64,000 bases of DNA from an uncultured Acidobacteriota bacterium (GTDB taxonomy: Bacteria; Acidobacteriota; Vicinamibacteria; Vicinamibacterales; CAVVIG01). The translations under genes and the position numbers were made by a program. Each line of letters starts with the position of its first letter. Within the stretch, counting starts at the first letter, position 1. The stretch is from assembly GCA_963711795.1 (NCBI GenBank), contig CAVQFD010000005.1:713695-777694 (forward strand), read 5' to 3'. Of this stretch, positions 25,435 to 60,984 are shown piece after piece. Below the pieces are notes generated by a model that was given only the letters and a program-made list of their open reading frames with translations, was not told the origin of the DNA and made no database searches.

Positions 25435-25445
25435 TGAGAGACAGG

Positions 25446-38478: not shown

Positions 38479-40411
38479 GCGGTCTCCGTGAGCCGTGGTC
38501 GTTTCAGTTTGCGCACCTCTCCTACTCTGACAGTCAATCCCTCGCGGTCGAAGAACTCGAGCAGCGGGATCGCGTACTTACGGGACGTCTGGTACTGATC
38601 CCGGAATGCCGCCGCGGTCATGGTCTTCCCGCCGGACAGCGCCTCGACGAGACCTGTGCGCAGACGCTCGACGACTGCGGCCGCGAAATAGAGGTCGGGC
38701 GCAATGGCGACGACGGAATGCTCCGCCTCGAGCGCGCGCATCAGGCCGATGAGTTTTGGGCGCTGGACGCCAAGCTCCTCCGCGATCTGCTTGAGATCGG
38801 GCGGTGCCATCGGCGCTTTGTCGAGCAGCGCGCGGATGCGGTCGACCAGCGCCTGATCGCCGGTCGGCACCTGGACGCGATGGCCGGGCAGCCGCAGCAG
38901 CGGACCCTCGCGATTGAGCGCTCCCTCGGTTTCGAGCTCCTGCACGAGCAGCCGCACGATCTTCGGCGGCGTGTGCGGAGGGCAGCCCGCGCGTGCGTCC
39001 TCGACGTCCATTCCCGGCAGGAGCGGGTGAGAGGCATGCCAGGCGCGCACCCGATCGACAATCTCGGTCTTGGCTCGCCGGCAATCCTCCTCGGGCGCGT
39101 AGTGCAGATCGCTCTCGAGGCGGAACACGTGGATGTCGGCTCGCGCCTCCAAGCGCGCGCGCAGATCCTCCTGTCGCTCGTTGAGCACCAGCGACAGCTG
39201 CTGCAGCGGTACCGCCAGCTCGCCGCTGTTCCAGGCGAGGCTCTCGACGACCACTCCCTCGTTCCCCCGATCGAAACCCTCCAGCCGCGCCAGCAGTGAG
39301 GGGCCAGCCCTCTTGTGTTTCGGCGCCGCCGGCCAGACGACCGTGCCGCCCGCAATCGTCCGCTGCGCCGTTTCGTCGCGCAGGATGAAGCGATCGCCCC
39401 GCAGGGCAAGGAACGGCTCGGTGAGCTCGATCTGGCAGTACGCGCGCCCTCCAGGCTCGACTTTCGCAGCGGCCGGACCGAACACGATCACCTTTCCCAT
39501 GCGCTCCGACGTGCCGAGGTGAACGCGCACGCGCTGATGGCTCTTGATGCCGGCCGGCGCGCCAGGCGGCACTTCGATACGGGCGTCGAACCGGTCGCAT
39601 GTGAGCGTGATTGCCTCGTCGCAGATCGTGTCGCCGCGGGTGATCGGCGTCCGCGTGTCGCCCGCCAGGTTCAGCGCGAGCCGCTGTCCCCAGCGAGCCG
39701 ACGTCCGCGGGCTCGTTGTGCACCTCGACGCTGCGAACGCGCACGACATCGCCTCCCGGCAGACGACGCACGTGGTCGCCGGGCCGGACCTCACCGCGCG
39801 ATGGCGGTGCCGGTCACGATGAGGCCATGCCCCGGCGACGCGAAGGCCCGATCGACCGGCAGGCGGAAGCGGCCGTCCGGCTTCGGCTTTCCGCTCGAGG
39901 CGAACACGTCGGCGCAATCAGGTCGCGCAGCTCCGCCAGGCCTTCGCCGGTGACGAACGAGAAGGGCACGACGGCGATTCCTGCGAGCGTCGTGCCCGCG
40001 ATCAGTCCGCGGATCTCGTCGCTCACCTCGCGCACGCCGCTCTTCCGAGACCAGGTCGGTCTTGGTGATGACGAAGATCGCGCGCTCGACCCCCAGCAGG
40101 TGGAGGATGTCGAGATGCTCCACGGTCTGCGGCATCACGCCATCGTCGGCCGCGACGGTGAAAAGCACGAGGTCCATGCCGTGTGCGCCGGCCAGCATGG
40201 TGCGGATGAAGCGCTCGTGGCCCGGCACGTCCACGACCCCGGCCCGGATTCCGTCGGGCAGATCGAGGTGCGCGAACCCGAGCTCGATCGAAATGCCGCG
40301 CTCCTGTTCTTCCTTGAGCCGATCGGTGTTCTGGCCGGTGAGCGCCTTGACGAGGCTCGTTTTCCCGTGGTCGATGTGTCCGGCCGTTCCGACGATCCAG
40401 TGTGTGGTCAC
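38475..40411 (-). pseudogene. selB: Selenocysteine-specific elongation factor; several frame disruptions
   Basis: GTG 40411 gives [47 protein letters not shown]...[16 protein letters not shown]. Domains II-III lie in other frames. The C-terminal winged-helix region is intact (ORF 38475..39917, ...YAIPLLEFFDREGLTVRVG). Confidence 0.85.
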
Positions 40412-41804
40412 TCCGGTCTCCCACCGGGGGACGAGGTCGGCCGGGTCGTCGACCGTGCGCAGGTCGAGGAGGAAGCGCCCGTCGCTGATGCGTCCGATGA
40501 TCGGCGGGTGCGCGGCGCGGAAGCGTTCGGCGAGACGGTCGGCCGAGAGGCTGTCGCTCTCGATCGCAATGACCTTGGTCGGCAGTTCCTCGGTCGGTAA
40601 GGCGCCGCTGCCGATCTGCGACGTGGAATCCTCGAGCGACACACGGCAGCCGGCGCCGAGCGCCCGTTGCAGAGATGGCAGGACGTGCCGGCCCATCTCG
40701 GCGATCTCGTCCAGGCTTCTGGTGAAGGCCCTGAGCGTCGGGATGCTGCGGGCGACGTCCGCTGACTGCTGGTAAAGCTTCAGCGTGGCTTCCAGCGCCG
40801 CAAGGGTCAGCTTGCTGCAGCGCACGGCGCGGTGGAGCGGGTTGCCGGCAATCTGTCGCACGAGCGCGCGGGAGCCGACGATGAGCCCCGCTTGAGGGCC
40901 GCCGAGGACCTTGTCGCCGCTGAACGTCACGATGTCGGCGCCAAGCGACACACGCTCGGACACGAGCGGTTCCTTCGGCAGGCCATAGCGGCTGAGATCC
41001 ACGAGCGCGCCGCTCCCGAGGTCCTCCATGACGGGGACGCCGCGGCTTCGGCCAATCGCCACGAGATCGCCGAGCGCGACGTCGGCCGAGAAGCCCACGA
41101 TGCGGTAGTTGCTCGTGTGGACCTTGAGCAGGAGGCCGGTGTTCGGCCCGATGGCCTGCTCGTAGTCGCCCGGATGCGTGCGATTGGTCGTCCCCACTTC
41201 GCGCAGGACGGCGCCGCTCTTGGCGACGATGTCCGGGAATCCGGAATGCCCCGCCGATCTCGACGAGCTCGCCGCGCGAGACCACGACGTCTTTTCCGCT
41301 GGCCAGCGTGTTGATCGCGACCAGGACAGCGGCGGCGTTGTTGTTGACGACCGTGGCGGCCTCGGCGCCGGTCTGCTGGACCAGGAGCGATTCGACCAGC
41401 GCTTCGCGGCTGCCGCGGGCGCCGCGCGTCCAGGTCGTACTCCAGGTTGACCGGGTGACGCGCGGCGAGCGTCAGGGCGTCGATGGCCGGCTGGGGCAAC
41501 AGGGCGCGGCCGAAGTTGGTGTGGAGGATGGTGCCGGTCGCGTTGACGATGCGGACCAGGCCGCTCTGGCGGTCGTGCCGCATGCGCCGCTCGACCCTCG
41601 TGAGGATGTTGTGATCGTCGAGCTCGGCGTGCGGCACCGAGGCTCCCTCCGCGATCTGCCGCCGCAGGTCTGCCACGACGTCACGGCACAGGCCTGCGCA
41701 CGTACGTCGCGGCCGACGCTCGCCATCCAGGCCGTCGCGCGTGCGTGCGACAGCAGCCGATCGACGGACGGCAGGTCTCTGAGCGAGGCTTTCGCCTGCG
41801 TCAT
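40408..41804 (-). pseudogene. selA: L-seryl-tRNA(Sec) selenium transferase; several frame disruptions
   Basis: MTQAKASLRDLPSVDRLL...; IVNATGTILHTNFGRALL; [20 protein letters not shown]...; [18 protein letters not shown] (PLP-lysine region). These lie in different frames. The stop overlaps the selB GTG (GTGA). Confidence 0.85.
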
Positions 41805-41897: not shown

Positions 41898-41934
41898 GGG
41901 CAGGCGGGGCAGGTGGGGCAGGTGGGGCGGGCAG
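41898..41934 (+). repeat. G-tract repeat GGGcaggcGGGGcaggtGGGGcaggtGGGGcGGGcagg; potential G-quadruplex
   Basis: Five G3-4 tracts with 1-5-nt loops lie between the selA start and tRNA-Sec. Confidence 0.6.
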
Positions 41935-41984: not shown

Positions 41985-42079
41985 GGAGAAGGAAGGTGCC
42001 CGGTGGTGCCGCTGGTCTTCAAAACCAGTCTGGGGGCCGTCAGGCCCTCGGAGGGTTCGACTCCCTCCCTTCTCCGCCA
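41985..42079 (+). tRNA. selC: tRNA-Sec (anticodon UCA at 42019-42021), 95 nt including CCA
   Basis: 8-bp acceptor GGAGAAGG/CCTTCTCC. Anticodon arm CTGGT-CTTCAAA-ACCAG. Long variable arm GGGGCC-gtca-GGCCC. T arm GAGGG-TTCGACT-CCCTC. Discriminator G followed by CCA. Confidence 0.9.
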
Positions 42080-43230
42080 CTAAGTGTTGGCAGAGCTGAG
42101 GTTCACGATCTGCACCAGTCCGCCGTTGCCACGATGTCTGCCACGAACGGCGGAGATTCCGGGGGACTCGAGCAAATCGAATCGCGCCATCGAGCGCTGG
42201 CAGGACTGAGGTGCATGTACCGCTGCGTCGTCGTGAAGTTGGCATGCCCGGCCAACTCCTGAATCGCCCGCGGCGCCGCGCCCCGCATCGCGAGATGCGA
42301 ACAGAACGTGTGCCGTAGACGATGCGGACCATTGCCCTGCAAGGCCTGCGCGTCGTGCCGCTCGGACGACCGCGCCCGCGACGGTGCCTTCGGTAAACGG
42401 CTTGCCGCTGTCGCGATACAGCACCCGTGGGCCCCGCAGATGTTGACGCTTCCGAAGGGCCGCGGTCAGACGAGCCGTCATCGGCACATACCGGAATCCG
42501 GCCGCCCTTCGGCGAATCACCTGGCCTTCCCAGGCGTTCCGCTGCACGCAGAGCGAGCGTTTGACCAGATCCAGGTCGGTCCACTCCAACGCCATAATCT
42601 CGCCCGACCGCAGGCCCGCCTCGCCACTCAGGAGCACGAGCAGATACGTACGACATCGATCGCGTTCGCGGCGGCATCGACGAACCGCTCGTACTCATCG
42701 AAGTCGTAGAAACGAGACCGCGCGACTTGGAGACCTTCAACAGCTTGATCGCTGCACGGCATCTGGTCGATCACGCCCCATTCCACCGCTTTCTTGAGCA
42801 GCGTGTTCAACACGGTGAGGACATTGTTCACGGTCTTCGGCGACTTGCCCTTGCAGATGGGCCTTCAGCCGCTGTACATCTTCGGTCGTGATGGCGTCGA
42901 GCCGCTTGCGCCAACATTGGCTGCAAATGCACGCGCAAGATCAAGTCCTTGGCGTGAATGCCGCTCGGCTTTGTGCTGGTTGGCCCGGGCGTGGCCGTCC
43001 AAAAACCGCGGCGAGAAGTCTTCTAAGGTTGGCACCTCCTTCTTGGGTGAGCGGGTCAGGCGTGGTGCAGCAGATGACCACTCCCGCTCCTGGCTCCCCC
43101 ATCGCTGGGCGGCTATTCGACCCGTGACCGGTCGCCTTCCGCTCCCGGATACGTCGTGCCGTCCGGCAGGACGACCCGAATATCCACATCCCAGCCACCC
43201 TCGTCGATACGGTCTGACTGTTACGCTCAT
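42080..43230 (-). pseudogene. Tyrosine-type site-specific integrase (phage/ICE type, arm-binding N-terminus); several frame disruptions; stop codon abuts the tRNA-Sec 3' end
   Basis: MSVTVRPYRRG...; KEVPTLEDFSPRFLDGHARANQHK; KTVNNVLTVLNTLLKKAVEWGVIDQMPC; LLSGEAGLRSGEIMALEWTDLD; [41 protein letters not shown]. The R..HxxR..Y catalytic elements are visible. Confidence 0.85.
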
Positions 43231-43271
43231 CGCTGTCTACCTTCCAGCGATGGCGTGGACTTCTGGCGAAG

Positions 43272-43523
43272 CTAGTTTAGCAGAGCGTCCTCGCGGACCA
43301 GCACGCGGCGTCCGATGCGGACGATGCCGGGGAGCTGGCCCCGCTCCACCATCGAGTAGATCGCCTTCCTGGTCGTCCGCAGGAGTTCGGCCACTTCGAC
43401 CGGCGTCAACAAGGCGGGAGCGGGGCTGAGTCTCTGTGCCGCCGTCTCACTTGAGCACGGTGGATGCGCCAGGGTCAGAGGCGCGTGTAGCTTTCCACGA
43501 CTCGGGCTGGCGGGCTTGTTCAT
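43272..43523 (-). CDS. Excisionase/AlpA-like helix-turn-helix protein
   Basis: LLTPVEVAELLRTTRKAIYSMVERGQLPGIVRIGRRVLVREDALL. The ATG shares one nt with the upstream stop (TGATG). Confidence 0.6.
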   Translation of the reverse strand: MNKPASPSRGKLHAPLTLAHPPCSSETAAQRLSPAPALLTPVEVAELLRTTRKAIYSMVERGQLPGIVRIGRRVLVREDALLN

Positions 43524-43855
43524 CAACTCGTCGATTCGGTCCTGGCTCGAATGGCGGACAGGCGCTCGTCCACCTTTTTCCATTTATCGCGGTCCGCCCG
43601 ATCGATCAGTGCGCGCATGGAATCCGCGGTCACGGCTGTTCCGTCTACGAGTGCGAAATGCAGATTCAGGAGGATGACTCGCAGGGCCAGGAACTCGGCG
43701 AGTAACGCGGTCACCATGGGATCGGGCTGCACCGCATGCAGCAGGGTTTTGCGCGCCCACTCGCTAATCGTCAGCGGGGCGGCGAGACTCGCGACGAGCT
43801 CGTACTCCGCGTCTGTGACTTTGGTGCTGAGCGACTTCGTGCGTCGTGTGGCCAT
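43523..43855 (-). CDS. Ribbon-helix-helix (CopG/MobC-like) DNA-binding protein
   Basis: MATRRTKSLSTKVTDAEYELVASLAAPLTISEWARKTLLHAV. It is the first gene of the RHH-Xis-Int operon. Confidence 0.55.
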   Translation of the reverse strand: MATRRTKSLSTKVTDAEYELVASLAAPLTISEWARKTLLHAVQPDPMVTALLAEFLALRVILLNLHFALVDGTAVTADSMRALIDRADRDKWKKVDERLSAIRARTESTS

Positions 43856-43922
43856 GGGGTTCTCCGCAGAGCGAAAACCGGGCCGAAGATCGGCCGCTTC
43901 TCTAACCCGCATCGATTCAACG

Positions 43923-44017
43923 AGTTCCCTGTTGGCAACCGATGTTCCTGGCGAGGAACCGCGCACCGCCAACCGGCGTGTCTTCAGAAGGTTCCGAATG
44001 AGGAACCGAGGTTCCTG
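43923..44017. promoter_or_regulatory. Cluster of GGTTCC/GGAACC inverted and direct repeats upstream of the RHH gene; candidate operator or recombinase arm sites
   Basis: gttccctg, GTTCCTggcgAGGAAC, GGTTCCgaatgaGGAACCgaGGTTCC. Confidence 0.35.
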
Positions 44018-44189
44018 GGCAGCACCCTGCTGGGGGTGACGTGTCACACCTACTCCCGCTGCGCAGCAGCGCTCTTCGCGGCACGCCGTCGCGCGGGTCA
44101 GAATCTGACTCTGCTCGGTCACCAGCCGAGGGTCAGATTTGACCCTTATGGCGGAGCGGTTTCGCAAGGGGAGTTGGCTGACGAGTGAA

Positions 44190-44508
44190 CTACTTACCGA
44201 TCCGGGAAAGCCAGTAGCCAGGTTCGCGGCTGTCGTGCGCAAACGCCAGAATTCGAAAGGCGCCTTCCCACGGTAAGTACACGACGTGGTACGGGAAGCG
44301 CTTCACCGGGACTTGGCGGACGGGCACGTCGTTGGGTAGGCCAGGAACTCGGCGCCCGATCTGCGGCCAACCGGCGATCTGTTCCAGCGCGAAGTCCACG
44401 GCCTGGACCAACTCCAAGCCAAGCCCGTGCGCTGGCCTTCTGTACGACAGTGCGGCGTCTTCAAGCTCGGCGGAGGCTTCTGGCTCGGGGCGGAACTGTA
44501 CCGGTCAT
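44190..44508 (-). CDS. ParE/RelE-family toxin; frameshift right after the ATG
   Basis: ...VQFRPEPEASAELEDAALSYRRPAHGLGLELVQAVDFALEQIAGWPQIG...FPYHVVYLPWEGAFRILAFAHDSREPGYW. The ATG overlaps the antitoxin stop (ATGA). Confidence 0.7.
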
Positions 44509-44750
44509 CGTTCGGTCAGCCGTCGGACAACGCGCGCGCGCACGTCTTCCCACGGTTCACCGGCCGATTCGCCGTTCATCACACGTCGCGCCCGTCGTTC
44601 GATTTCATGAGCCCAGGCGGCTTCGACCTCGGCGGCATTTTTCGCCGGCGCCTCGTCGAGGCTGGCCAACAACTCGGCGGCCACGTCGGCGCGTTCTTCA
44701 ACGGGCAACGTCAAGGCTTCTCGAAGAAGTTCTTGCGCTCGGGACGTCAT
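44505..44750 (-). CDS. Addiction-module antitoxin component
   Basis: MTSRAQELLREALTLPVEERADVAAELLASLDE...EVEAAWAHEIERR. Confidence 0.7.
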   Translation of the reverse strand: MTSRAQELLREALTLPVEERADVAAELLASLDEAPAKNAAEVEAAWAHEIERRARRVMNGESAGEPWEDVRARVVRRLTER

Positions 44751-44776
44751 GTCGCCATTCTAGACTCGGCCGGGCA

Positions 44777-44847
44777 GCCCAACAAGCGGCTGCACCAGAC
44801 GGCTGCGAGCTTTTTGTGCAGCCGCTGGTGAGCCGCGATCGTTAGGC
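44777..44847 (+). repeat. attC site 1 (R'' GCCCAAC ... R' GTTAGGC)
   Basis: gcccaacaagcggctgcacc...ggtgcagccgctggtgagccgcgatcGTTAGGC. L''/L' pair with unpaired bases. Confidence 0.75.
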
Positions 44848-45052
44848 CCTCGGCGGACGGAAGAGCAAGATGACTATCCAGTACGCGCTGTGGCCCGGCG
44901 ACAGTTTCTCTGAACTCTCGGACTTAATTCGTCGTTCGCGGGTGCCGCGTGCGGCTAATTGGGGCTGTGTTGTCGGTTGAATGCGAGCCTGCCCAAGCAA
45001 CGGAAGCGGCGGCTCTTGCCAACGAGTACGGTGAGGCGCTCCGGAAATACTT

Positions 45053-45526
45053 TTGGTTCGCTCGGCTCATGACTGTCGAGGAGGACCGGGGCAATGCCAG
45101 CACGAGCAGTCACCATCCAAGGCAAAACCGCGCCCGAAGGCATCGCGGGATTGTGTGCGACTGAGAGACGCCCGGCGCTCGATTGTCAAACGCGCACATG
45201 CGCGTTTGAGTCAGTGCTACGACTACTTCCAGCTGGCCCGCGATGAACCGAAGCATGCCTTGTTCAATATCTACAAGCTCATTGAGACGATCGAGGGTGA
45301 GTATGGTGGCGAGAAGGAGGCAGCTCGCGCCCTCGACGATGGTGGGCTCATTAAGCGGCTCAAGCGTCACGCGAACCAGGGGGATCATGACCAGCGCCAC
45401 GCCCCGCTTGACCCCGGAGCCGCCGTGCCGATTGACGACAACTCTTTGGCACTGTTGACTGAGGCGACGAACGACTTGCTTCGTAGGTACGAGGATGCGG
45501 TTGCATCAGCGGCGCCATCCTCTTAG
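45053..45526 (+). CDS. Hypothetical cassette ORF; start and frame uncertain
   Basis: ORF only. Readable part is ...RLSQCYDYFQLARDEPKHALFNIYKLIETIEGEYGGEKEAARAL.... Overlapping ORF 44949..45164 suggests a possible frameshift. Confidence 0.35.
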   Translation: MVRSAHDCRGGPGQCQHEQSPSKAKPRPKASRDCVRLRDARRSIVKRAHARLSQCYDYFQLARDEPKHALFNIYKLIETIEGEYGGEKEAARALDDGGLIKRLKRHANQGDHDQRHAPLDPGAAVPIDDNSLALLTEATNDLLRRYEDAVASAAPSS

Positions 45527-45549
45527 TCCTGCTGGCCAAATGCTTCGTG

Positions 45550-45621
45550 GCCTAACAGCGTTCCACCAGTCGGCCGCTGATGCGATCGTGAGCGGCCGCT
45601 CGTGAACGCTGGCCGTTAGAC
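45550..45621 (+). repeat. attC site 2 (GCCTAAC ... GTTAGAC)
   Basis: gcctaacagcgttccaccagtcggccgctgatgcgatcgtgagcggccgctcgtgaacgctggccgttagac. Confidence 0.8.
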
Positions 45622-45721
45622 CGCCAGTCAAGGAGAGGGTGCCGCTCTAGGAGAACTGGTAGGGTACGTCGTCGCGACCGAGTCCGCCTTCTCAATCATT
45701 CACTCATCCAAGGAGACACAC

Positions 45722-46245
45722 ATGCCCATCACCGCATTCAACAGTTTCAGCGACGGACTCGCTCCGAATCAAAGAAGCCGGGAGCATTTCATCGCCAACA
45801 TCGATCTGAAGACGGCCCGCACTGGGTGCCCTATGCCGACGGCGTCTGGATCCAACTCTGCCACTTCAATGTCACGTCCGGCGGATTCAGCGTTGTCCTG
45901 AAAGGTCTCCCGGGCGCCGCGCTGGGCACTCACTACCACATCGGGACCGTTCGGGGCTTTACGATGCGTGGTCAGTGGCGGTACCTGGAACATGACTGGG
46001 TTGCGAAGCCCGGCACGTTCATCTACGAACCCGCCGGCGAGGCCCACACGCTGGTCATCACGGACGACTCCCCGGAGCCGGCGCTGATCTTCTTCGCGGT
46101 CGAGGGCGGCCTCATCTACCTGGACAAGGCGGTCGACGGCGGTTTTGCCGCTTATGAGGACGGCTTTACCGCTTTGGAACTGGCCCGAAAGTACTATCGT
46201 GAGGCCGGTCTCGATGTGCGCAAGCTGGATGCGCTAGTTCGCTAA
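45722..46245 (+). CDS. Cupin-fold protein, 2,4'-dihydroxyacetophenone-dioxygenase-like; one frameshift ~45810
   Basis: An aaggag RBS precedes MPITAFNSFSDGLAPN...EHFIANIDLK. After the shift it reads DGPHWVPYADGVWIQLCHFNVTSGGFSVVLKGLPGAALGTHYHIG...YEPAGEAHTL. Confidence 0.65.
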
Positions 46246-46255
46246 TTGGGCTGCG

Positions 46256-46316
46256 GTCTAACAACCGGTTGCAGCGGACGGCGCTGTCGCGCCGCCGCTG
46301 AACCGGAGCGTTAGCC
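46256..46316 (+). repeat. attC site 3 (GTCTAAC ... GTTAGCC)
   Basis: gtctaacaaccggttgcagcggacggcgctgtcgcgccgccgctgaaccggagcgttagcc. Confidence 0.8.
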
Positions 46317-46347
46317 GGACGAACCAAGCAATTCAGGCTCAAGAACA

Positions 46348-46793
46348 TTGACTGACAATGAACTGGTTCTTGAACACTCCGTCGAGGCAGATGTGAGCGC
46401 GGCATTTGCCTGGGAGGACCGGACCGACATTACAACCTGGATCGATCCACCCGCGACGTTTCAGCTCAATGGGCCATTCGTTGAGGGAACCCAGGGGACA
46501 ACCCTCATGCCGGGACAAGACCGGCTCACGTGGTGGATTCGCGATGTTCACGCCGGATCGTCGTTCGCGATCGAAATGCCATTGGATCGAGCGACGCTCC
46601 GATTCGAATGGCACGTTGTCCCGGTCTCGGAGCAACGGACAAAGCTCACGCAACGGATCATTCTCTCAGGAAGCAACGCCACAGCGTATCGCGAACAGCT
46701 TCAAACGGGATTCGGGTCGACGCTTGCGGCCGGTATGGCAAGGATGTCAGCAGACATGGTGGCGGCGGAGAGAATCGGAAGACTCCCGGCTAA
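46348..46793 (+). CDS. SRPBCC (polyketide cyclase/START-like) protein; frameshift ~46765. The restored frame stops at the TAA inside attC R''
   Basis: MTDNELVLEHSVEADVSAAFAWEDRTDITTWIDPPATFQLNGPF...WWIRDVHAGSSFAIEMPLDRATLRFEWHV. Confidence 0.6.
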
Positions 46794-46866
46794 CTTTCGC
46801 CTGGAGCCGACGCGCCGTTCTTCTGTGCGATCATGCCTGGCGCGCGGCTCAGGCGCAGCGTTGGGC
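46788..46866 (+). repeat. attC site 4 (GGCTAAC ... GTTGGGC)
   Basis: ggctaactttcgcctggagccgacgcgcc...ggcgcgcggctcaggcgcagcgttgggc. Confidence 0.7.
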
Positions 46867-46879
46867 GGACAAGCGATGT

Positions 46880-47551
46880 TCAAGTCTGTACCGAGGCATC
46901 AACCACAGTCTTACGCGATTGAATCGCCCGCCATGAGACGGTCATCAGCCAGGCACAAAAGCTCAGCACCATCAGGCGGTTCAGCCATCCGTTCCACGAG
47001 CCGGGACCGAACACGCGGCCGCTCGACAGTACCGCGATGGTATGGACCAAGGTCACCGCGACGCTTATCCACATGAAGTGGGCTGTCCATCGAATCGACT
47101 GCATGGCGGCCCGCCATGTCTGGCGGCGTCCAAGACTTCGGCTGAGAAGCACACCGGCGATCGGCAAGCTAAGAATGAATATCGCTCCGGCCGCACTATG
47201 AAGCATCCCGTGCGTCGTCATGTCTTCCGGCTTTGTCGTGATGGGATCCACGACAAAGATGCCGCCCACAGCCAGAGCCGCGGCGACAACAAGAAGCAGG
47301 CTGAGCGCGATCCTGCCGCCGGTGGTTTCGATCTCGGAGCGAAGGGCCGCAAATAACGCGGCGCAGCTGAGGGCCATGGAAAACATTGCCATCCTCATGA
47401 CCCAGCCGTAGTCTCCGATGGCGTATTCACTGCCCATACGCCATGAGGGATCCAGTTCCGGTTTGAGGACGTGCAAGATAGCGAGCAAAACAAGGAACGC
47501 GGCGGCAGCGGCAAATGACACGCGAGCTGCAGGTATTGAACTTGCCGTCAT
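46880..47551 (-). CDS. DUF998-like polytopic membrane protein (reverse-oriented cassette)
   Basis: Six predicted TM helices. Sequence includes MTASSIPAARVSFAAAAAFLVLLAILHVLKPELDPSWRMGSEYAIGDYGWVMR. Confidence 0.6.
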   Translation of the reverse strand: MTASSIPAARVSFAAAAAFLVLLAILHVLKPELDPSWRMGSEYAIGDYGWVMRMAMFSMALSCAALFAALRSEIETTGGRIALSLLLVVAAALAVGGIFVVDPITTKPEDMTTHGMLHSAAGAIFILSLPIAGVLLSRSLGRRQTWRAAMQSIRWTAHFMWISVAVTLVHTIAVLSSGRVFGPGSWNGWLNRLMVLSFCAWLMTVSWRAIQSRKTVVDASVQT

Positions 47552-47623
47552 CGATACAACCTCATTCTTCTTTTCGATTCGATGTCATTATCCGTTGTTT
47601 TTCAGCTCAAATAGTTAGCGGTT

Positions 47624-48603
47624 TGGAGTTCCCAGGATTCAGTGGACAGTCGTTTTAGCATCCGCAGCGGAGGCCGATGCCGATGTCCACGAAGCCAGCG
47701 CCGGGCGAGTCCGGTCGACGTACGAATTCATCAAGGCCCATCGAGACCAGTACAGCGTGCAGACGATGTGTCGCGTCCTCGGCGTCGCTCCGAGCGGCTA
47801 CTACGAGTGGCTTCAGCAGCCGATCTCGAACCGCGCGCAAGAGGATGCCCGGCTGCTTCGCCTGATTCGGGCGTCGTTCGTCGCGAGCCACGGCATCTAC
47901 GGCGCGCCGCGCGTCTTCCTCGATCTGCGTGAAGCGGGAGAGACCTGCAGCAAGCATCGCGTCGCGCGGCTGATGCGCGAAGCCAATCTGCGGGCGCTGC
48001 ATGGCTATCGCACGCGGCGCTGGGCCGTCGGGAAGCCGTCGGTCCTGATTCCGAATCTGCTGCAGCGACAATTCACCGTCGACGCGGCCCAACAAGGCCT
48101 GGGTGACCGATATCACCTACATTCGGACCTGGCAGGGCTGGCTCTACCTGGCCGTCGTCATGGATCTGTTCTCGCGCAAGATCGTGGGCTGGGCCGCCGG
48201 CCCGACCATTCACCGCGAGCTCGTGCTCGATGCCGTGCTGATGGCGGTGCGGCGACGACGGCCGCGCGGCACGCTGATTCACTCCGATCAGGGCACCCAG
48301 TACGGCAGCGACGCGTGGCGGCGATTCTGCCGTTCGAATCACCTCGAGCCGAGCATGAGCCGGAAGGGCAACTGCTGGGACAACGCCGTCGCCGAGTCCT
48401 TCTTCAGCAGCTTGAAGAAAGAGCGGATCAAGAAACAGATCTACAAGAACCGGGAGCTGGCGATCGCCGACGTGGCCGACTACATCGATACGTTCTACAA
48501 TCGGACGCGCCGCCACAGTCATCTCGGCGGGCTGAGTCCCGAGCAATTCGAAGCGGCTCACAACCGGCGCCGAAAACGTCTCCACTGAATCCTGGGAACT
48601 CCA
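47624..48603 (+). mobile_element. IS3-family element remnant (980 bp) with 23-bp terminal inverted repeats and no intact orfA
   Basis: IRL TGGAGTTCCCAGGATTCAGTGGA starts at 47624. Its reverse complement ends at 48603. No clear target-site duplication (gtt versus ggc). Confidence 0.8.
47757..48588 (+). pseudogene. IS3-family transposase OrfB (HTH_21 + rve/DDE integrase core); frameshift ~48085
   Basis: MCRVLGVAPSGYYEWLQQPISNRAQEDARLL...HGYRTRRW (ORF 47757) joins VTDITYIRTWQGWLYLAVVMDLFSRKIVGW...IHSDQGTQYGS...DNAVAESFFSSLKKE (ORF 48103..48588). Confidence 0.85.
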
Positions 48604-48646
48604 GGCTCGGCGGTTGCAAGATGAGATGGCGGGCGTGTGATGAGCG

Positions 48647-48718
48647 GTCTAACATGCGTTGCACCAGACGACCGCTGATGCGATCGTGAGCGGCCGCCGG
48701 TGAACGCGGACGTTGAAC
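48647..48718 (+). repeat. attC site 5 (GTCTAAC ... GTTGAAC)
   Basis: gtctaacatgcgttgcaccagacgaccgctgatgcgatcgtgagcggccgccggtgaacgcggacgttgaac. Confidence 0.8.
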
Positions 48719-48929
48719 CGCCGTAGCCCTCAGCGGACCTCCAAAAGACGGACGAACGTTGCCACGATATTGCCACGACGGAGGGCGATTCCAGCGGAGT
48801 CTCGGGGACACCAGTGAACGATTGCACGGTCTAAACTTGATGACTCGGCAGGGCTTGTTGCCAGAAGTCCCACGCCATCGTCATGTTAAAGAATCACGTG
48901 AATAGGGTTCACTCTCCCTTCTCCGCCAC
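48713..48929 (+). repeat. Non-coding cassette segment X, copy 1: ~190-nt conserved block ending in a degenerate copy of the tRNA-Sec 3' end (48905-48929)
   Basis: Near-identical to 52522-52731. It ends gggttcactctcccttctccgccac, against the tRNA sequence gggttcgactccctcccttctccgccac. Confidence 0.8.
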
Positions 48930-48950
48930 GCCCATTCGGGCGTGGCGTTC

Positions 48951-49389
48951 GAAGGGAGCGTCTAGGCTTCGGCCAATGGGCTTCGCCCATCGGCCTCGGC
49001 ACGACTCCCACTGAAGGGAGCGTCCAGGCTTCGTGCGACGGGTTTCACCCATCGCCCTCGGCACGACTCCCGCGGTAGTGCGCGACGTCGGTTCGGGCGT
49101 GGCGTTCGAAGGGAGCGTCTAGGCTTCGGCCAACGGGCTCTGCCCGTTGCCCTCGGCACGACTCCCTCTGAAGGAAGTGTCTGAGGTTCAGGCGATGGGC
49201 TTCGCCCATCGGCCTCGGCACGATCCCCTTGAAGGAGCGGTCTAGGCTTCGGCACGACTCCCGGTTCGAGGGAGCGACTAGGCTTCGGCCATTGAGCTTC
49301 GCTCGTCGGCCTCGGCACGACTCCCTCTAAAGGAAGCGTCTAGGCTGGTTACGATGGCTTCACCAATCGCCCTTGGCATGACTCTCTCT
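48951..49389 (+). repeat. Tandem array of ~7 units (~61-63 nt), each with a GGGAG...CTCCC frame around an internal hairpin
   Basis: Unit is gaagggagcgtctaggcttcGGCCAATGGGCttcGCCCATCGGCCtcggcacgactcccact. Units start at 48951, 49013, 49107, 49170, 49231, 49268 and 49329. Confidence 0.8.
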
Positions 49390-49462
49390 GACTAGCACAC
49401 GTTGCACCTGGCGGCGGCTGTTGCGAGACTGAACCGCCGCTCGTGAACGATAGCCGCTAGGC
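49390..49462 (+). repeat. attC site 6, degenerate cores (ACTAGCA ... GCTAGGC)
   Basis: L''/L' cgttgcacctggcggcgg ... ccgccgctcgtgaacg resemble those of attC 2 and 5. Confidence 0.55.
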
Positions 49463-49641
49463 AGCTACGACCGAATTGGAGAATCGCTCCGCCGATTTGA
49501 ATTGTTCCGTCGCCCAGCTCTGCAGTACAGTCGGCCAACTTACCACACGGCCGCAGACGACGGATATCGTGCGCCGGTGCTGATGCGGCTCCGTTCGGCC
49601 GACTCGCACTTCGCCAATGTGTGAACTGGAAGAGAGTTGCT

Positions 49642-50120
49642 ATGAAATGGCTGCTGCTCACCATCGGACTAGCTTCCTTAGCCGCTGGTCTGTCTTCGCA
49701 GGGCAAGCGGGTTATCGTCGTCCAGCCTTTCACTCTTGCGTCCGGTGTGGAATTGCCGTACGACACCAAGCTGCTTCAAACACAACTTGTCGCTGATCTC
49801 AAAGTTCAGATCGGCAAGGAGTTCGACTTCGTCGTGGAACCTCCCGCAGCTCCTCAGGGGTCGCTTTATAAGCTGGATGGGGAGATCACGGGCTGGCGTC
49901 CAGGCAATGCTGCCAAACGCCTCGTTATCGGCCTAGGCTCTGGTCGAGAAGCGACGGACATCCATTATTTTGTTACCGACACGTCTGGCCAAAAGGCCAT
50001 CGACCGGACGGACACAATACGTACAACTTCTACTCTCAAGGTGCTGGGTCTGTCGGGACGCTGGTGCATCCGATCGCTCAAAAGATCGCTGAGCGCCTTA
50101 AGGACGCTAGGTTGAAATAG
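49642..50120 (+). CDS. DUF4410-like lipoprotein; frameshift ~50025
   Basis: MKWLLLTIGLASLAAGLSSQGKRVIVVQPFT...LDGEITGWRPGNAAKRLVIGLGSGREATDIHYFV. The restored end is RTNFYSQGAGSVGTLVHPIAQKIAERLKDARLK. Confidence 0.55.
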
Positions 50121-50208
50121 GCCGCCGAACATGGATTGCAGCTGAACGGCGGTCCCAGGACCTGATGACGCGTCGCCGGAAGAAGAGATGATTTCGCGCC
50201 AAGGGCCG

Positions 50209-50317
50209 GTCTAACCGGCCGCTGCACCTGACGGCATCGGGCCGCGCTCACGCGCGCCCCTCGCGCTCGGTGCTATGGTGACTCGCGCGTGCCGCAGCTA
50301 AGCGGCAGGCGTTAGGC
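50209..50317 (+). repeat. attC site 7, long form (GTCTAAC ... GTTAGGC)
   Basis: gtctaaccggccgctgcacc...gtgccgcagctaagcggcaggcgttaggc. Confidence 0.65.
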
Positions 50318-50340
50318 TGACCTTAAGGCCGGGAAAGACG

Positions 50341-50820
50341 ATGCTCATGGATGTGGAGATCCTCGCAGATCAGATCAGCAGGGCCTTCCGGGGCGAGTCC
50401 TGGCATGGGCCCTCGGTGCTCGAGGTGCTGGCGGGTGTCTCGGCGGAAGACGCCGCCGCCCACCCAATTGCCGGAGCTCACAGCATTTGGGAGATCGTCC
50501 TTCACCTGGGTGCTGGATACACTTTGGTCCTTCGGCGCGTTCGTGGAGAGCGTGCAGCGCTCTCGCCGGAAGAAGAGTGGCCTCCAGTGCCGGCGTCCAG
50601 TTCGGAGGCGTGGCGCGAAAGCCAGCGAGCCTTGGAGGAACTCAACGAGCAGCTGCAGGGCGTTGTGCGCGCCTTCCCGGCGGAGCGCCTTCTCCAGGAG
50701 CTGGGCTCCGAGTACTCGGCGTACACCCAGTTCGCCGGCACGCCGCAGCACGACCTATATCATGCGGGTCAGGTCGTTCTACTCAAGAAGGCACTCGCTG
50801 CCTCGCGAAGGGCAGCCTAA
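50341..50820 (+). CDS. DinB-family (DinB_2-like) protein
   Basis: MLMDVEILADQISRAFRGESWHGPSVLEVL...AHSIWEIVLHL...HDLYHAGQVVLLKK. The stop TAA lies inside attC R'' GCCTAAC. Confidence 0.75.
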   Translation: MLMDVEILADQISRAFRGESWHGPSVLEVLAGVSAEDAAAHPIAGAHSIWEIVLHLGAGYTLVLRRVRGERAALSPEEEWPPVPASSSEAWRESQRALEELNEQLQGVVRAFPAERLLQELGSEYSAYTQFAGTPQHDLYHAGQVVLLKKALAASRRAA

Positions 50821-50890
50821 CAACGAGACGAAGCTGACAAGCTGCGATGACGTTGGCTCCCGCACCTTGCAGCTTATCTCGGTGTTATCC
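50815..50890 (+). repeat. attC site 8 (GCCTAAC ... GTTATCC)
   Basis: gcctaacaacgagacgaagctgacaagctgc...gcaccttgcagcttatctcggtgttatcc. Confidence 0.65.
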
Positions 50891-50940
50891 GGACACGGAA
50901 CAAACGCGAATCCAATTCGCGGATCGTTATTGACCTGGCA

Positions 50941-51390
50941 ATGTTTGAACACGTTACTGAGAAGAAGCGCAGTCGATGGCGGACCTTCTGGCCAGAGGTT
51001 GCGGACATCGGTGGAGCCGACGAAGCCATCCGTCTGGGCTACTGGACATGCTCCTTGGTAGCCGGCTTGACTGCTGTGGTGGCACTATTCGGGCAGACAT
51101 GGTCGGGATTGGTCGACGCCCTCGTCTTCGCGCTGCTCGGTCTTGGGTTGAAGCGAAGGTGGCGAAGCGCCGCCGTTGCGGCCTTTCTCCTTTTTGCACT
51201 CAACGTCGTCATCAGCCTCAGTCGCTCGCCGCTTGTCGGGGTGCTCACGGTCATCTTCTTTGTCTGTCTGCTGAGCGGAGTCCGCGGCACGTTTGCGCAC
51301 CGGCGTCTCATCGCCCAAGGCATACAGCCCGGGTCTGGCGTGCCGGTGAATCTAGAAGCTGCGAAACAGGATGGGGACGGTGCCGGATAA
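50941..51390 (+). CDS. Hypothetical membrane protein (3 TM helices)
   Basis: LGYWTCSLVAGLTAVVALFG...LVFALLGLGL...AAFLLFALNVVISL...VLTVIFFVCLLSG. The stop TAA lies inside attC R'' GGATAAC. Confidence 0.5.
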   Translation: MFEHVTEKKRSRWRTFWPEVADIGGADEAIRLGYWTCSLVAGLTAVVALFGQTWSGLVDALVFALLGLGLKRRWRSAAVAAFLLFALNVVISLSRSPLVGVLTVIFFVCLLSGVRGTFAHRRLIAQGIQPGSGVPVNLEAAKQDGDGAG

Positions 51391-51478
51391 CAGCGGCTGG
51401 ACCCGACGGCGGCCCTCGTCGCGAACGAGCTGACTCGCGGGTGATCAGCCACCGCGGGTCAGCCGCCTGCCGTTAGGT
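51385..51478 (+). repeat. attC site 9 (GGATAAC ... GTTAGGT)
   Basis: ggataacagcggctggacccgacggcgg...ccaccgcgggtcagccgcctgccgttaggt. Confidence 0.65.
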
Positions 51479-51497
51479 GCTGCCCATCCCTCTCAAT

Positions 51498-52013
51498 ATG
51501 CGACTCCTCCTCGCACTCAGAGCTCTCTTCTTCGTCCTGCTGCTACCCGGTACACTGGCCGGCTACATCCCATTCAGCATCCTCCGAGCCGACAACCTAC
51601 TGCGCGTCCCAGCCCTCGGGCTCTCCTCCGTCTGCGCCGCCGTCTTCGCCATCACCGGTGCTCTTGTCCTCCTCCGGTGCGTCTGGGACTTCTTCGACGC
51701 AGGCAAGGGCACTCTCGCCCCTATCGATCCCCCACGCTTCCTTGTTGTCCGAGGTCTGTACCGCTTCACCCGCAACCCTATGTACAACGGCGTCATCGCC
51801 CTCATCCTCGGGGAGGCGTGGCTTTTCCAGAGCATCGGTCTGGCAAAGTACGCACTTCTAGTCCTCATCCTCTTCCACTTGTTCGTGGTCCTCTACGAGG
51901 AGCCTGCCCTTGAGTCACAGTTCGGGGAGTCGTATCGGGCCTACCGGCGTGCGGTTCCCCGCTGGGGCTTCACGACTCGGCCGTTTCAAGAGAGCACCGG
52001 GAGCACCGCCTAA
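51498..52013 (+). CDS. Isoprenylcysteine carboxyl / phospholipid methyltransferase-family membrane protein
   Basis: MRLLLALRALFFVLLLPG...LVVRGLYRFTRNPMYNGVIALILGEA...EEPALESQFGESYRAYRRAVPRW. The stop TAA lies inside attC R''. Confidence 0.75.
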   Translation: MRLLLALRALFFVLLLPGTLAGYIPFSILRADNLLRVPALGLSSVCAAVFAITGALVLLRCVWDFFDAGKGTLAPIDPPRFLVVRGLYRFTRNPMYNGVIALILGEAWLFQSIGLAKYALLVLILFHLFVVLYEEPALESQFGESYRAYRRAVPRWGFTTRPFQESTGSTA

Positions 52014-52102
52014 CATGCCGTTGCAGCTGACTGTCACGAGCCCTGCCGGCGCGAGCACGCGCAGCAGGGCTCGCGCCAGCAGCTGGACGCCGGTCGTTAG
52101 GC
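52008..52102 (+). repeat. attC site 10 (GCCTAAC ... GTTAGGC)
   Basis: gcctaacatgccgttgcagctg...cagcagctggacgccggtcgttaggc. Confidence 0.75.
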
Positions 52103-52457
52103 GGACAAGGCCAGGAAAGAGGGGGGAGTGTGCCCAATTCGATATCTCCAGAAGAACTCCGAGACCTGCACCTGCCTCAGCTTGGTCGGCGACTTAATTT
52201 CAAACGTGCGGGCTCGATTCGACCTTCAGGCGCCTGGGGCGCCTGCGAAGCGCAGGTCGATGACGTCACCACATGTGTTCATGTGTTCTCTATGCCGAAA
52301 TAGTAGAAGGACACGTGAAGAAGTTCGGCACAACTGGCTCGTTGCGGGACAGACAGTCACTGATGCCAAGACGTAGAGGGTGAGCTCAACGATCACGACA
52401 AGACAATTGAGTACCGGTTGGGCAACGAGGCGGAATTGATTGCGGACATGCATGACT

Positions 52458-52527
52458 GCCTAACATGGCATGCAGCCGACAGCGCGCGTGACTACGAGTG
52501 CGCTGCGGCTGAAGCCTGACGTTGAAC
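52458..52527 (+). repeat. attC site 11 (GCCTAAC ... GTTGAAC)
   Basis: gcctaacatggcatgcagccgacagcgcgcgtgactacgagtgcgctgcggctgaagcctgacgttgaac. Confidence 0.75.
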
Positions 52528-52731
52528 CGCTGTAGCCCTCAGCGGACCTCCAAAAGACGGACGAACGCTGCCACGATACTGCCACGACGGAGGGGAGTCT
52601 CGGGGACACCAGTGAACGATTGCACGGTCTGAACTTGCTGACTCGGCAGGGCTTGTTGCCCGAAGTCCCATGCCATCGTCATGTTAAAGAATCACGTGAA
52701 TAGGGTTCGACTCCCTCCCTTCTCCGCCACT
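52522..52731 (+). repeat. Non-coding cassette segment X, copy 2, ending in an exact 29-nt copy of the tRNA-Sec 3' end (52703-52731)
   Basis: gggttcgactccctcccttctccgccact is identical to 42053-42081. Confidence 0.85.
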
Positions 52732-52761
52732 TTCCTCGCTTGTGGCTCGGTCAGTAGCGGA

Positions 52762-52870
52762 GAAAGGGAGCGTCTAGGCTTCGGTCAACCGGCTTTGCCC
52801 GTTGCCCTCGGCACGACTCCCACTGAAGGGAGATCTAGGCTTTGGGCAATGAGCTCCGCTCATCGCCGAT
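52762..52870 (+). repeat. Two further units of the ~62-nt hairpin tandem repeat
   Basis: gaaagggagcgtctaggcttcggtcaaccggctttgcccgttgccctcggcacgactcccact and gaagggagatctaggctttgggcaatgagctccgctcatcgcc. Confidence 0.75.
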
Positions 52871-52944
52871 CCTACACAGGTCGTAACCCGTGTCGTCGCG
52901 TGGCTCCGTCAGCGGTAATCTCGGTCGACAACATCAGATGGGTC

Positions 52945-53017
52945 GGCTAACCTCCGCTTGCAGCCGTCGGCGGCTGGTGCGATCGTGAGCCGCCGCGGCT
53001 GAAGCGGCGCGTTGGGC
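52945..53017 (+). repeat. attC site 12 (GGCTAAC ... GTTGGGC); last one seen
   Basis: ggctaacctccgcttgcagccgtcggcggctggtgcgatcgtgagccgccgcggctgaagcggcgcgttgggc. Confidence 0.8.
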
Positions 53018-53134
53018 TGCGGACGTGTGTTCTTGGATGGAGAGCGAGGCACTATGCAGGTCATTCGACGGTTCGCCGGTGCTGTTTGCGTTCGACAACA
53101 TCGTGGCCGAGTTGGTGCAAAAGGCGGGTGCCGC

Positions 53135-54241
53135 ATGATGACCCTGCAGCGTTGGATCCTTGCTGCCATCATTCTTTTCATTGGCGCCGTCACACCCTCC
53201 GTCGTGGCCCAGAACGCGAACGTCTCACCACCTGCCGCCAGCGCACCTGCCCCGCAGGCTGTCGCGCCTTCGTCCGGTTGTCACAACGAGCAGGGACTGA
53301 CCTACCTGTGTGACCTCAGCGTCCCGGAAGACATCCTGAACCTTGGTTCCTCCGGCCTTCTGCTTGTGTCCGGTCACCGTGCGCCCGGTCACCTGTATCT
53401 GATCGATCCTGCGACACGGACGCAGTCGGAGCTCATCCACGGCGCTACCTTCAGGCTCCAGCACGACACCCGCGCCTATCCCGACTGTCCGGGGCCGCTG
53501 AACCTGCAGGCCTTCGATGTCCACGGTCTCAGCCTGGCCGAGACGTCGCCCCGGTATTTCAGCCTGTACACCACGAGCCATGGCGCGCGCGAAGCCATCG
53601 AAATCTACGATCTCGACCTTCGCGGCACGGCGCCGAGCCTCACCTGGAAGGGCTGTGTCCTCCTGCAGCAGGACAGTTACCACAACAGCGTCGCCCGGCT
53701 CGCCGACGGCGGATTCGTGACGACCAGAATGCGGGACCAGAACTTCAGGGGTGGTGGAGGTGCCCCAGCCGGCATCACCGGCCATCTGATCGAGTGGCAT
53801 CCGGGCGGCCAACCCCAGCCGCTCCCCGACACCGAGATGTCGCTGCCGAACGGCATCGACGTCTCGAAGGACGAGCGCTACATCTACGTGGCCGCCATCG
53901 GCTCGCAGGAGTTGGTTCGTTTCGATCGCCGGGCGACGCCGATTGCCAAGCGCACGGTGTCACTGCCCATTCGGCCGGACAACGTCCACTGGGCCACCAA
54001 TGGCAAGCTTCTGACCGCCGGTCCCAACTATGTCCCGCCTGCGGTGTGCAGCGGCGCGGGCTGCGCCACGGGCTGGTCGGTGCTCGAAGTCGATCCGGAG
54101 ACGTTGGCCTTCTCGCGGCTCGGCGGCGCGGATCAAACGGCCGCGATGCAGCGCGTGAGCTCGGCCATGCGAGTGGGCGACGACATCTGGGTTGGCAGCA
54201 ACGACGACCGTATCGCCCGCTTCTCGCTGCGCCGGCCTTGA
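53135..54241 (+). CDS. Secreted SMP-30/gluconolactonase/arylesterase-like beta-propeller protein
   Basis: Signal peptide is MMTLQRWILAAIILFIGAVTPSVVAQ. Further segments: ...LPNGIDVSKDERYIYVAAIGSQELVRF...DDIWVGSNDDRIARF. Confidence 0.6.
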   Translation: MMTLQRWILAAIILFIGAVTPSVVAQNANVSPPAASAPAPQAVAPSSGCHNEQGLTYLCDLSVPEDILNLGSSGLLLVSGHRAPGHLYLIDPATRTQSELIHGATFRLQHDTRAYPDCPGPLNLQAFDVHGLSLAETSPRYFSLYTTSHGAREAIEIYDLDLRGTAPSLTWKGCVLLQQDSYHNSVARLADGGFVTTRMRDQNFRGGGGAPAGITGHLIEWHPGGQPQPLPDTEMSLPNGIDVSKDERYIYVAAIGSQELVRFDRRATPIAKRTVSLPIRPDNVHWATNGKLLTAGPNYVPPAVCSGAGCATGWSVLEVDPETLAFSRLGGADQTAAMQRVSSAMRVGDDIWVGSNDDRIARFSLRRP

Positions 54242-54343
54242 ACACACTCCGGGATCAGTTCGACTGATCGCCCACTCGCGTGACCGCGCCACGACGTAAG
54301 CGCTCTGGATGAATTACACCGTGTCCAGGCTTCGGAGGCTGAC

Positions 54344-60945: not shown

Positions 60946-60984
60946 CGCCGAACCGAGCACCGCTTCGTTCAAGCGCCAGTGCGC

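Follow-up and report, generated by a model that had tools for sequence, protein, structure and literature searches.

A probably degenerate, composite integrative island at tRNA-Sec and its integron-carrying relatives in Acidobacteriota-like soil bacteria

In this work, we analysed a 64,000-nt stretch of DNA from an uncultured Acidobacteriota bacterium (contig CAVQFD010000005.1 of assembly GCA_963711795.1, positions 713,695 to 777,694), hereafter the window, which contains a cluster of small mobile genes next to the selenocysteine tRNA gene (tRNA-Sec). All position numbers refer to the window; the locus was also compared with other genomic loci, coded L###, whose proteins are coded P####. We consider it likely that the locus is a degenerate composite integrative island, and that it belongs to a family of small integrase/excisionase (Int/Xis) islands found in Acidobacteriota-like soil bacteria, some members of which carry integrons. 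Comparison of the sequences supports a tyrosine-recombinase island that would have been inserted into the 3' end of tRNA-Sec and would be bounded by attL and attR copies of the segment from the T arm to the CCA end.

The tRNA-Sec target, the att copies and the related islands

The tRNA gene is intact, and its 3' end is found in three copies, two of them preceded by closely similar sequences:

41985-42079, + strand: tRNA-Sec, anticodon TCA, intact (ARAGORN; Rfam RF01852 at full length, 74.2 bits against a gathering threshold of 47)
42052-42081, + strand: attL core, 30 nt, from the first T-stem base through the T loop and the 3' acceptor strand to CCA plus 2 nt
42126-42146, + strand: putative arm-type integrase sites of the P' arm (TTGCCACGATGTCTGCCACGA), with the same paired motif in both P arms of the window and in L081, L083 and L086
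48712-48904, + strand: P arm copy 1, with putative arm-type sites TTGCCACGATATTGCCACGA at 48759-48778; 91% identical to 52521-52702 and homologous to the right end of the L086 island
48905-48929, + strand: middle att core, 3 nt short in the T-loop part
52521-52701, + strand: P arm copy 2, with putative arm-type sites at 52568-52587
52702-52731, + strand: right att core, an exact 30-nt copy of the tRNA 3' end

A first-pass annotation, made from the letters of this stretch alone, had reported an exact recurrence of the last 29 nt of the tRNA region. This 29-mer indeed occurs exactly twice in the window, at 42053-42081 and 52703-52731 (none expected from 100 shuffles), and the identity reaches one base further to the left, giving 30 nt (42052-42081 and 52702-52731) at a spacing of 10.65 kb. 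The decayed copy reported at 48905-48929 was borne out as well. It reads GGGTTC+ACT+CTCCCTTCTCCGCCAC, the GACTCC of the full core being cut to ACT, and it retains an exact 16-mer of the core, for which the window holds three matches against 0.08 expected. Chance does not explain the middle copy: its upstream 193 nt (48712-48904) and the 182 nt preceding the exact copy are 91% identical. An Rfam scan matched tRNA-Sec and nothing else in the island.

The sequence to the left of both downstream cores is a conserved putative integrase-binding arm. Paired TTGCCACGA motifs flank the cores, at a distance of 45-65 nt on the right side of the attL core and of 125-146 nt on the left side of both downstream cores. 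L086 has this pair in each of its two arms; L081 and L083, both cut off at the right end, have it in the P' arm. L082 has a different motif, which has changed together in both its arms. Such co-variation between the two arms is what arm-type integrase sites would show.

The family context points in the same direction. The four nearest integrases (P0001, P0002, P0003 and P0019; 67-75% identity), on four independent contigs, are all located against tRNA-Sec, and selA-selB accompany the integrase and tRNA-Sec in L081, L082 and L086. The loci L081, L082, L083 and L086 share the integrase gene (int) and differ in their cargo. L082 has a 29-nt repeat at a distance of 9.5 kb, and its core begins and ends where that of the window does; in L090, L137 and L168, the tRNA of each locus is repeated over 27 nt, 4.5-11.6 kb further on. 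More distant members of the family (48-66% identity) lie against tRNA-Asp, Met, Ser, His, Ala, Gly, Leu, Sec or tmRNA, always with the same 3' geometry. The GC content of the island is 0.61-0.62, compared with 0.66-0.67 in its flanks. Finally, L001 keeps the gene order selD-selB-selA-tRNA-Sec with no integrase, repeat or cassette array and thus represents an unoccupied site. The attL/attR signature proposed in the first-pass annotation is therefore supported by the repeats of the relatives, the putative arm-type sites, the GC content and L001, and the same integrase was recovered at tRNA-Sec in other genomes, as that annotation had advised seeking. The comparison with an empty site, also suggested there, succeeded in part: L001 lacks the island, and the site polymorphism (L001 empty, differing cargo elsewhere) is seen at genus or family distance, not at strain level. 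A genome scan with SelA as a query yielded no genome of the same species (best match 73% identical) and showed tRNA-Sec beside selA only in L001 and L008, and look-ups of the exact proteins encoded at 54344-54826 and by the DinB and DUF998 genes returned no record, hence no second assembly of the locus. The annotation had taken tRNA-Sec for an uncommon target, which does not hold: the gene, selC, is a known integration site and a classical target of islands and phages (PMC6174562).

From the anatomy of the family and the established biology of tyrosine recombinases, the following mechanism may be proposed. In the circular element, the attP would comprise three parts: a P arm of ~190 nt holding a pair of arm-type sites, a core of 30 nt that matches the T-arm-to-CCA end of tRNA-Sec exactly, and a P' arm, overlapping the 3' end of int, which holds another such pair. 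Int would recombine the core with the tRNA gene, so that the tRNA is rebuilt and the displaced copy is left at the far end, and Xis would direct excision. As cargo, an integron-type cassette array fills the space from the recombination module to the P arm; in relatives, the integron integrase (IntI) is encoded next to Xis.

Other kinds of element were considered. A prophage was rejected, as no phage genes are present and the integrase is less than 29% identical to any integrase in the phage collection. No transfer genes that would indicate an integrative and conjugative element (ICE) or an integrative and mobilizable element were found in the island, and its open reading frames (ORFs) have no Pfam matches to mobilisation or replication genes (relaxase, oriT proteins), apart from a sub-threshold NikA-like match of a 110-aa protein described below. 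It is very improbable that no integrative island exists at all and that a sedentary chromosomal cassette array merely lies beside tRNA-Sec, with the tRNA-like fragments as cassette content. Cassette DNA does run past the right repeat, and IntI proteins of the same clade occur in plain chromosomal integrons; however, this leaves unexplained why the nearest integrases are found at tRNA-Sec in four independent contigs with a different cargo in each, why the arms around the core are conserved even in the cassette-free element of L082, whose core limits are those of the window, and why L001 has the same gene order with no array.

The cassette array and the composite structure of the island

The cassette array was delineated in two ways. 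A structural scan for imperfect palindromes of the form RYYYAAC...GTTRRRY had matches only at 44.8-52.1 kb of the window, and in 86 integrase-family loci (578 kb) it matched only IntI-encoding loci. A covariance model, R1, was trained on ten attC sites from other loci, all beside a true IntI, and the whole window was searched with filters off. This model, on which the attC calls rest, gave 12 matches on the + strand with 22-71 bits; all of them fall within 44777-53017, and nothing else in the 64 kb scored above 17.5 bits. Scores on the - strand at the same sites are far lower, and the 12 attC sites are thus co-oriented. The cassettes are 425-855 nt long with one ORF each, except for a 1.85-kb cassette with a remnant of an IS3-family insertion sequence (IS). 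Searches of the window by tblastn with three IntI proteins detected no integron integrase, only a cross-match to the catalytic region of Int; the array therefore falls under the definition of a CALIN, a cluster of attC sites lacking an integron integrase (Cury et al. 2016, PMC4889954). Its components and those of its right edge are as follows:

44190-44750, - strand: toxin-antitoxin cassette, ParE-like ORF 44190-44504 plus antitoxin 44505-44750 (antitoxin PF09720, 51 bits)
44777-44847, + strand: attC 1 (R1 64.9 bits; structural scan)
45053-45526, + strand: cassette ORF, no family match
45550-45621, + strand: attC 2 (R1 62.7 bits; 86% identical to an attC of the L168 integron)
45826-46245, + strand: cassette ORF, ChrR-like cupin (Pfam Cupin_7, 52 bits)
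46256-46316, + strand: attC 3 (R1 56.5 bits)
46788-46866, + strand: attC 4 (R1 54.2 bits); the preceding ORF, from 46348, has no Pfam match
46880-47551, - strand: cassette ORF, DUF998 membrane protein (Pfam, 87 bits)
47655-48588, + strand: IS3-family transposase remnant (HTH_21 and rve), frame broken (Pfam rve, 101 bits, joined translation)
48647-48718, + strand: attC 5 (R1 62.8 bits)
48930-49387, + strand: spacer F1 and 62-nt hairpin units (157-nt period, 2.8 copies)
49390-49462, + strand: attC 6, R'' and R' degenerate (R1 53.0 bits)
49642-50115, + strand: cassette ORF, DUF4410 lipoprotein (Pfam, 38.5 bits)
50209-50317, + strand: attC 7 (R1 41.5 bits)
50341-50820, + strand: cassette ORF, DinB_2 (Pfam, 42.5 bits)
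50815-50890, + strand: attC 8, weak (R1 22.4 bits, E 6e-4)
50941-51390, + strand: cassette ORF, membrane protein, no family match
51382-51478, + strand: attC 9 (R1 36.1 bits)
51477-52013, + strand: cassette ORF, PEMT/ICMT-type methyltransferase (Pfam PEMT, 43 bits)
52008-52102, + strand: attC 10 (R1 44.4 bits)
52458-52527, + strand: attC 11 (R1 41.9 bits)
52732-52870, + strand: spacer F2 and ~1.7 hairpin units
52945-53017, + strand: attC 12, top-scoring, outside the repeat-bounded segment (R1 71.2 bits)
53018-54255, + strand: SMP-30/SGL cassette, gene 53135-54241, own attC lost (homology to L172 and L171)

Both downstream core copies are embedded in a module with one layout: attC, P arm, core, short spacer, 62-nt hairpin units, attC. 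The two modules become highly identical exactly at GTTGAAC, the R' site of the attC before each (attC 5 in the middle module), and stay so until the core ends. Behind the core, 22-32 nt (spacers F1 and F2) are unrelated, and the hairpin units that come after them are again ~93% identical. The two attC sites at the module ends share only 71% identity, and each has closer relatives than the other; the remainder of the modules is 91-93% identical.

We favour a composite origin with at least two tandem segments: segment A (42082-48904, 6.8 kb) with Int-Xis, and segment B (48930-52702, 3.8 kb) with neither int nor intI, followed by a truncated older cassette remnant to ~54255. The repeats, the arms, the attC array and the settings of the family members are observed; the order of events is our interpretation. 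Two integrase-mediated events are suggested by two independent arm-core junctions to different flanks, joined exactly at the core end, and the flank of the middle copy matches the post-tRNA-Sec sequence of the closest relative, L081. Specifically, F1 and the units after it are 91% identical to the sequence directly after tRNA-Sec in L081, where one hairpin unit is followed by a second core copy of 22-24 nt and then by Int. The first-pass annotation had offered either one element of ~10.7 kb or two tandem elements of ~6.9 and ~3.8 kb; the tandem arrangement fits better, with the addition that cassette DNA continues ~1.5 kb past the right repeat.

Several observations weigh against a degenerate composite island. 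A simple tandem integration predicts a P'/int remnant to the right of the middle core, whereas F1, hairpin units and an attC are found there. An attC and a cassette follow the exact right copy, and the repeat-bounded segment consequently misses part of the array. Both modules start exactly at an attC R' site, which cassette-type mobility would fit too. No single locus joins this exact integrase clade, IntI and both ends, L081 and L083 being cut by contig ends. No empty site from the same species is available, L001 being only 73% identical in SelA and not syntenic in its right flank. Lastly, the single-base insertions in int, discussed below, may be assembly errors, and the term degenerate may be an overstatement.

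Part of this evidence is accommodated by an alternative that we regard as unlikely, namely one island with one true attR, in which the second arm-core-hairpin module was copied by attC x attC or homologous recombination, the attR junction between attC sites having acted as a cassette with no ORF and been inserted anew at another place in the array. It would explain the attC sites that bound both modules, the exact onset of high identity at the preceding R' site and the cassettes on both sides of each module, and both cassette duplication and ORF-less cassettes are common in chromosomal arrays (for IntI-less arrays, see PMC4889954). It is difficult to reconcile with the unrelated 22-32 nt after the core, flanked on both sides by identity above 90%, and with terminal attC sites that are only 71% identical and not mutual closest relatives. 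In addition, the middle copy is flanked by the sequence that natively follows the tRNA in L081, and in L168 and L086 the arm and core form the end of the island with no attC following. A simple whole-cassette duplication of the att modules is weakened by the unrelated spacers and the divergent terminal attC sites. Cassette duplication as the sole explanation of the repeats, which the first-pass annotation had named as a possible refutation, thus does not account for them, though they do lie between attC sites.

More speculative still, and in our judgement improbable, is the idea of two nested, cross-acting tyrosine-recombinase systems, with Int/Xis moving whole integrons between tRNA genes and the att module of the island itself (arm, core and hairpin repeats between attC sites) having become an ORF-less cassette open to copying by IntI within arrays. 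Under this idea, the blocks of 62-nt units may be miniature non-autonomous elements that use the same core.

Returning to the tandem island, its hairpin blocks may be native flank with secondary sites or a miniature element. The 62-nt units fold as hairpins, are found only in the window and L081, and always stand directly behind a full tRNA-Sec core; the second period of the 157-nt array opens with a decayed core of the same length as the middle core. The first 9-10 nt of F2 resemble the native post-tRNA flank of L001, a weak piece of evidence. An attC or attI origin of the units was rejected, since they do not match the attC model and are present only in the window and L081, and they gave no partial tRNA-Sec match in the Rfam scan. 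As a separate observation, the units (48930-49387; 52764-52870; L081 6015-6096) each end in a T-loop-like pseudo-core, CGACTCCC.

At the right edge, the SMP-30 cassette is 90% nt-identical to L172 9868-11121, where it lies between two attC sites, and 94% identical to L171. As homology stops at 54244-54255, the cassette has lost its own attC, and its location beyond the right repeat extends the mobile DNA from 42082 to ~54255 (~12 kb). It is a widely travelling cassette. Homologues of the SMP-30-like protein at 88-95% identity, and more at ~80%, are encoded on contigs labelled Acidimicrobiia or Gammaproteobacteria. In L172 itself (3164-20767), this cassette is part of an array of at least 17 attC sites, which is preceded by tRNA-Gln, a 460-aa integrase, Xis and two IS elements. 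At the left edge, ParE/antitoxin cassettes found beside IntI in L083 and L170 match the toxin-antitoxin pair at 73-75% nt identity. The IS3 remnant lacks orfA, lies inside the fourth cassette and ends ~60 nt before attC 5.

The recombination module and its frame breaks

Three genes on the - strand separate tRNA-Sec from the array:

42080-43230, - strand: tyrosine integrase, 371 aa as reconstructed, at least 14 frame changes (three-frame translation; Pfam Phage_integrase PF00589, 99 bits)
43233-43583, - strand: excisionase Xis, HTH_17 (Pfam PF12728, 41.8 bits; PHROG excisionase family)
43523-43855, - strand: conserved 110-aa protein upstream of xis, the ribbon-helix-helix (RHH) protein of the first-pass annotation (positional homologues in L083, L086 and L168)

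The integrase is split over all three frames (three-frame translation and ungapped tblastn pieces). By homology it is full length, with 99% coverage among 4464 relatives and 63-72% identity to nine aligned homologues, and its segments are 82-96% identical to the family consensus. The motifs LRSGE, HRLRHTF and TTQRYMHL, which make up the R...HxxR...Y signature of tyrosine recombinases, are present, and the protein is only distantly related to tyrosine recombinases of solved structure. The stop codon of its last segment (...VNLSSANT*), a TAG at 42082-42080 of the - strand, abuts the tRNA CCA, as the first-pass annotation had seen, with the caveat that the integrase is not one open frame; the last two bases of this stop codon fall within the 30-nt identity block. 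The intact homologues in L082, L083 and L086 likewise end directly against tRNA-Sec. Of the RHH-Xis-Int operon described in that annotation, Int and Xis were confirmed by Pfam and PHROG matches, and the RHH assignment is unproven, the sole family match of the 110-aa protein being weak, sub-threshold and NikA-like (E 0.012).

Compared with L081, its closest relative (87% nt identity over int-xis), the int gene of the window has 17 single-base insertions and 6 deletions, mostly in conserved non-homopolymer contexts and one of them inside an arm-type site. In xis, a stop replaces a Trp codon at 43272 and closes the frame 13 codons short of its normal end, judging from the Xis of L082, L083 and L086. 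Directly to the left of the tRNA, selA and selB (38478-41680, - strand) are multiply frameshifted, with no stop between them, and the selD-like gene (37384-38379) and tRNA-Sec look intact beside them. Other long genes of the window are intact, for example ORFs of 1124, 846 and 835 aa.

These frame breaks may reflect recent decay or locally poor assembly, and we do not choose between the two. Real degeneration is favoured by the substitution-type stop in xis, the missing intI and the IS remnant, and assembly error by the insertion bias of the int indels. There is some appreciable, though lesser, chance that much of the apparent decay (the frameshifts in int, selA and selB, perhaps also the 3-nt gap of the middle core) is a local assembly or polishing artefact of the metagenome-assembled genome (MAG), and that the island is intact and active. 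The breaks are mostly single inserted bases, one of them in an arm-type site, and high identity to the family consensus holds within the integrase segments; natural pseudogenes, moreover, usually show a deletion bias. An artefact is at odds with the intact long genes elsewhere in the window and with the substitution in xis, and the clean absence of IntI together with the IS remnant fits real degeneration. Taking the disruption of int and xis together with the missing IntI, we think that the island is probably fixed in place, its present immobility being read from these gene states.

Two further observations concern the same genes. The frameshifts in selA and selB could mean that selenocysteine use is being lost or that the stretch is poorly assembled. 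In L081, a gene called as a 207-aa Xis (4258-4881) is a frameshifted fusion of the 110-aa gene and xis, and that public MAG thus also has indels in this module.

Integrons in related islands and comparison with known systems

In several relatives, the integron integrase is encoded beside Int-Xis. This is the case in L081, L083 and L084, where IntI matches TIGR02249 with 378-446 bits against a cutoff of 265, and, according to tblastn and gene calls, in L143 (tRNA-His), L153 (tRNA-Ala) and L168 and L169 (tRNA-Ser). The island in L168 (7805-19495) is complete: after tRNA-Ser come Int, Xis and the 110-aa gene, then IntI and six attC sites, and finally a P arm and a 27-nt direct repeat. The repeat is 11.6 kb from tRNA-Ser, the P arm begins just past the last attC, and IntI and all six attC sites are inside the repeats. 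L086, another tRNA-Sec island, has seven attC sites and no IntI, like the window, and the L082 element has no cassettes at all. The same IntI clade, assigned to Vicinamibacterales in public records, is also found with no Int-Xis in L167 and L170.

The selC islands and phages of Enterobacteria include the enterocyte effacement locus (LEE), pathogenicity island I (PAI-I) of uropathogenic Escherichia coli (UPEC) 536, the Shigella island SHI-2, the Salmonella pathogenicity island SPI-3 and the retronphage phiR73. The island of the window shares with the enterobacterial islands the target gene, the tyrosine integrase beside the tRNA and the direct repeats of the tRNA 3' end as boundaries. It differs from them in an unrelated integrase lineage, in its uncultivated soil hosts, in the much smaller size of window-type elements (7-12 kb) and in a cargo of integron cassettes instead of virulence genes. 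As in CALINs and sedentary chromosomal integrons, the 12 co-oriented attC sites have the R''/R' consensus and a bulged hairpin, each cassette has one small ORF, and a toxin-antitoxin cassette is present; as in CALINs, no IntI lies within reach. What sets the array apart is that the att sites of a second tyrosine-recombinase system surround and delimit it, and two of its "cassettes" are the arm and core of that system. Tandem accretion is known from ICESt1 and the cis-mobilizable elements (CIMEs) of Streptococcus thermophilus, in which ICEs are found with integrase-less derivatives. The window resembles them in having three direct att copies and an integrase-bearing segment followed by an integrase-less one with the same end; in contrast, its internal att has no int-side arm on the right, and hairpin repeats and an attC stand there.

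Integrons inside Int/Xis-driven integrative elements are not new as such. SXT-type ICEs are integrative elements, some of which carry an integron. Salmonella genomic island 1 (SGI1), an Int/Xis-driven element that integrates at trmE, carries the class 1 integron In104 (SGI1 reviews such as PMC9035990). In SGI1 and SXT, however, the integron is a secondary insertion (transposon-borne in SGI1) into a large mobilisable backbone, whereas here IntI is directly beside Int-Xis at various tRNA genes. Also unlike SGI1, L168, the only relative with both ends, has within its 11.6 kb little beyond two recombinases and cassettes, and no mobilisation genes were found.

The island of the window is in itself ordinary, a small tRNA-inserted island that is probably dead, and its relatives give it a wider meaning. 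Although chromosomal integrons are described as sedentary, their phylogeny points to transfer, by vehicles about which little is known. With a true IntI beside Int-Xis in islands at tRNA-Sec, tRNA-His, tRNA-Ala and tRNA-Ser, the integron is part of the island backbone in these members, and L168 points to a simple vehicle for the transfer of whole integrons between genomes. The window and L086 suggest one origin of integrase-less arrays, by loss of intI within such islands. In a literature check that was not exhaustive, no description was found of integrons as backbone parts of tRNA-targeting islands.

Two kinds of intergenic repeats were also noted in the window. G-rich 9-mer repeats (GGGCAGGYG) are located at 41898-41932, just upstream of tRNA-Sec, and at 3174-3227 and 62157-62210. 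Tracts of the heptamer TTGAACC/GGTTCAA, in both orientations, are found at 14289-14387, 17358-17385, 24662-24741, 25245-25443 and 60884-60961.

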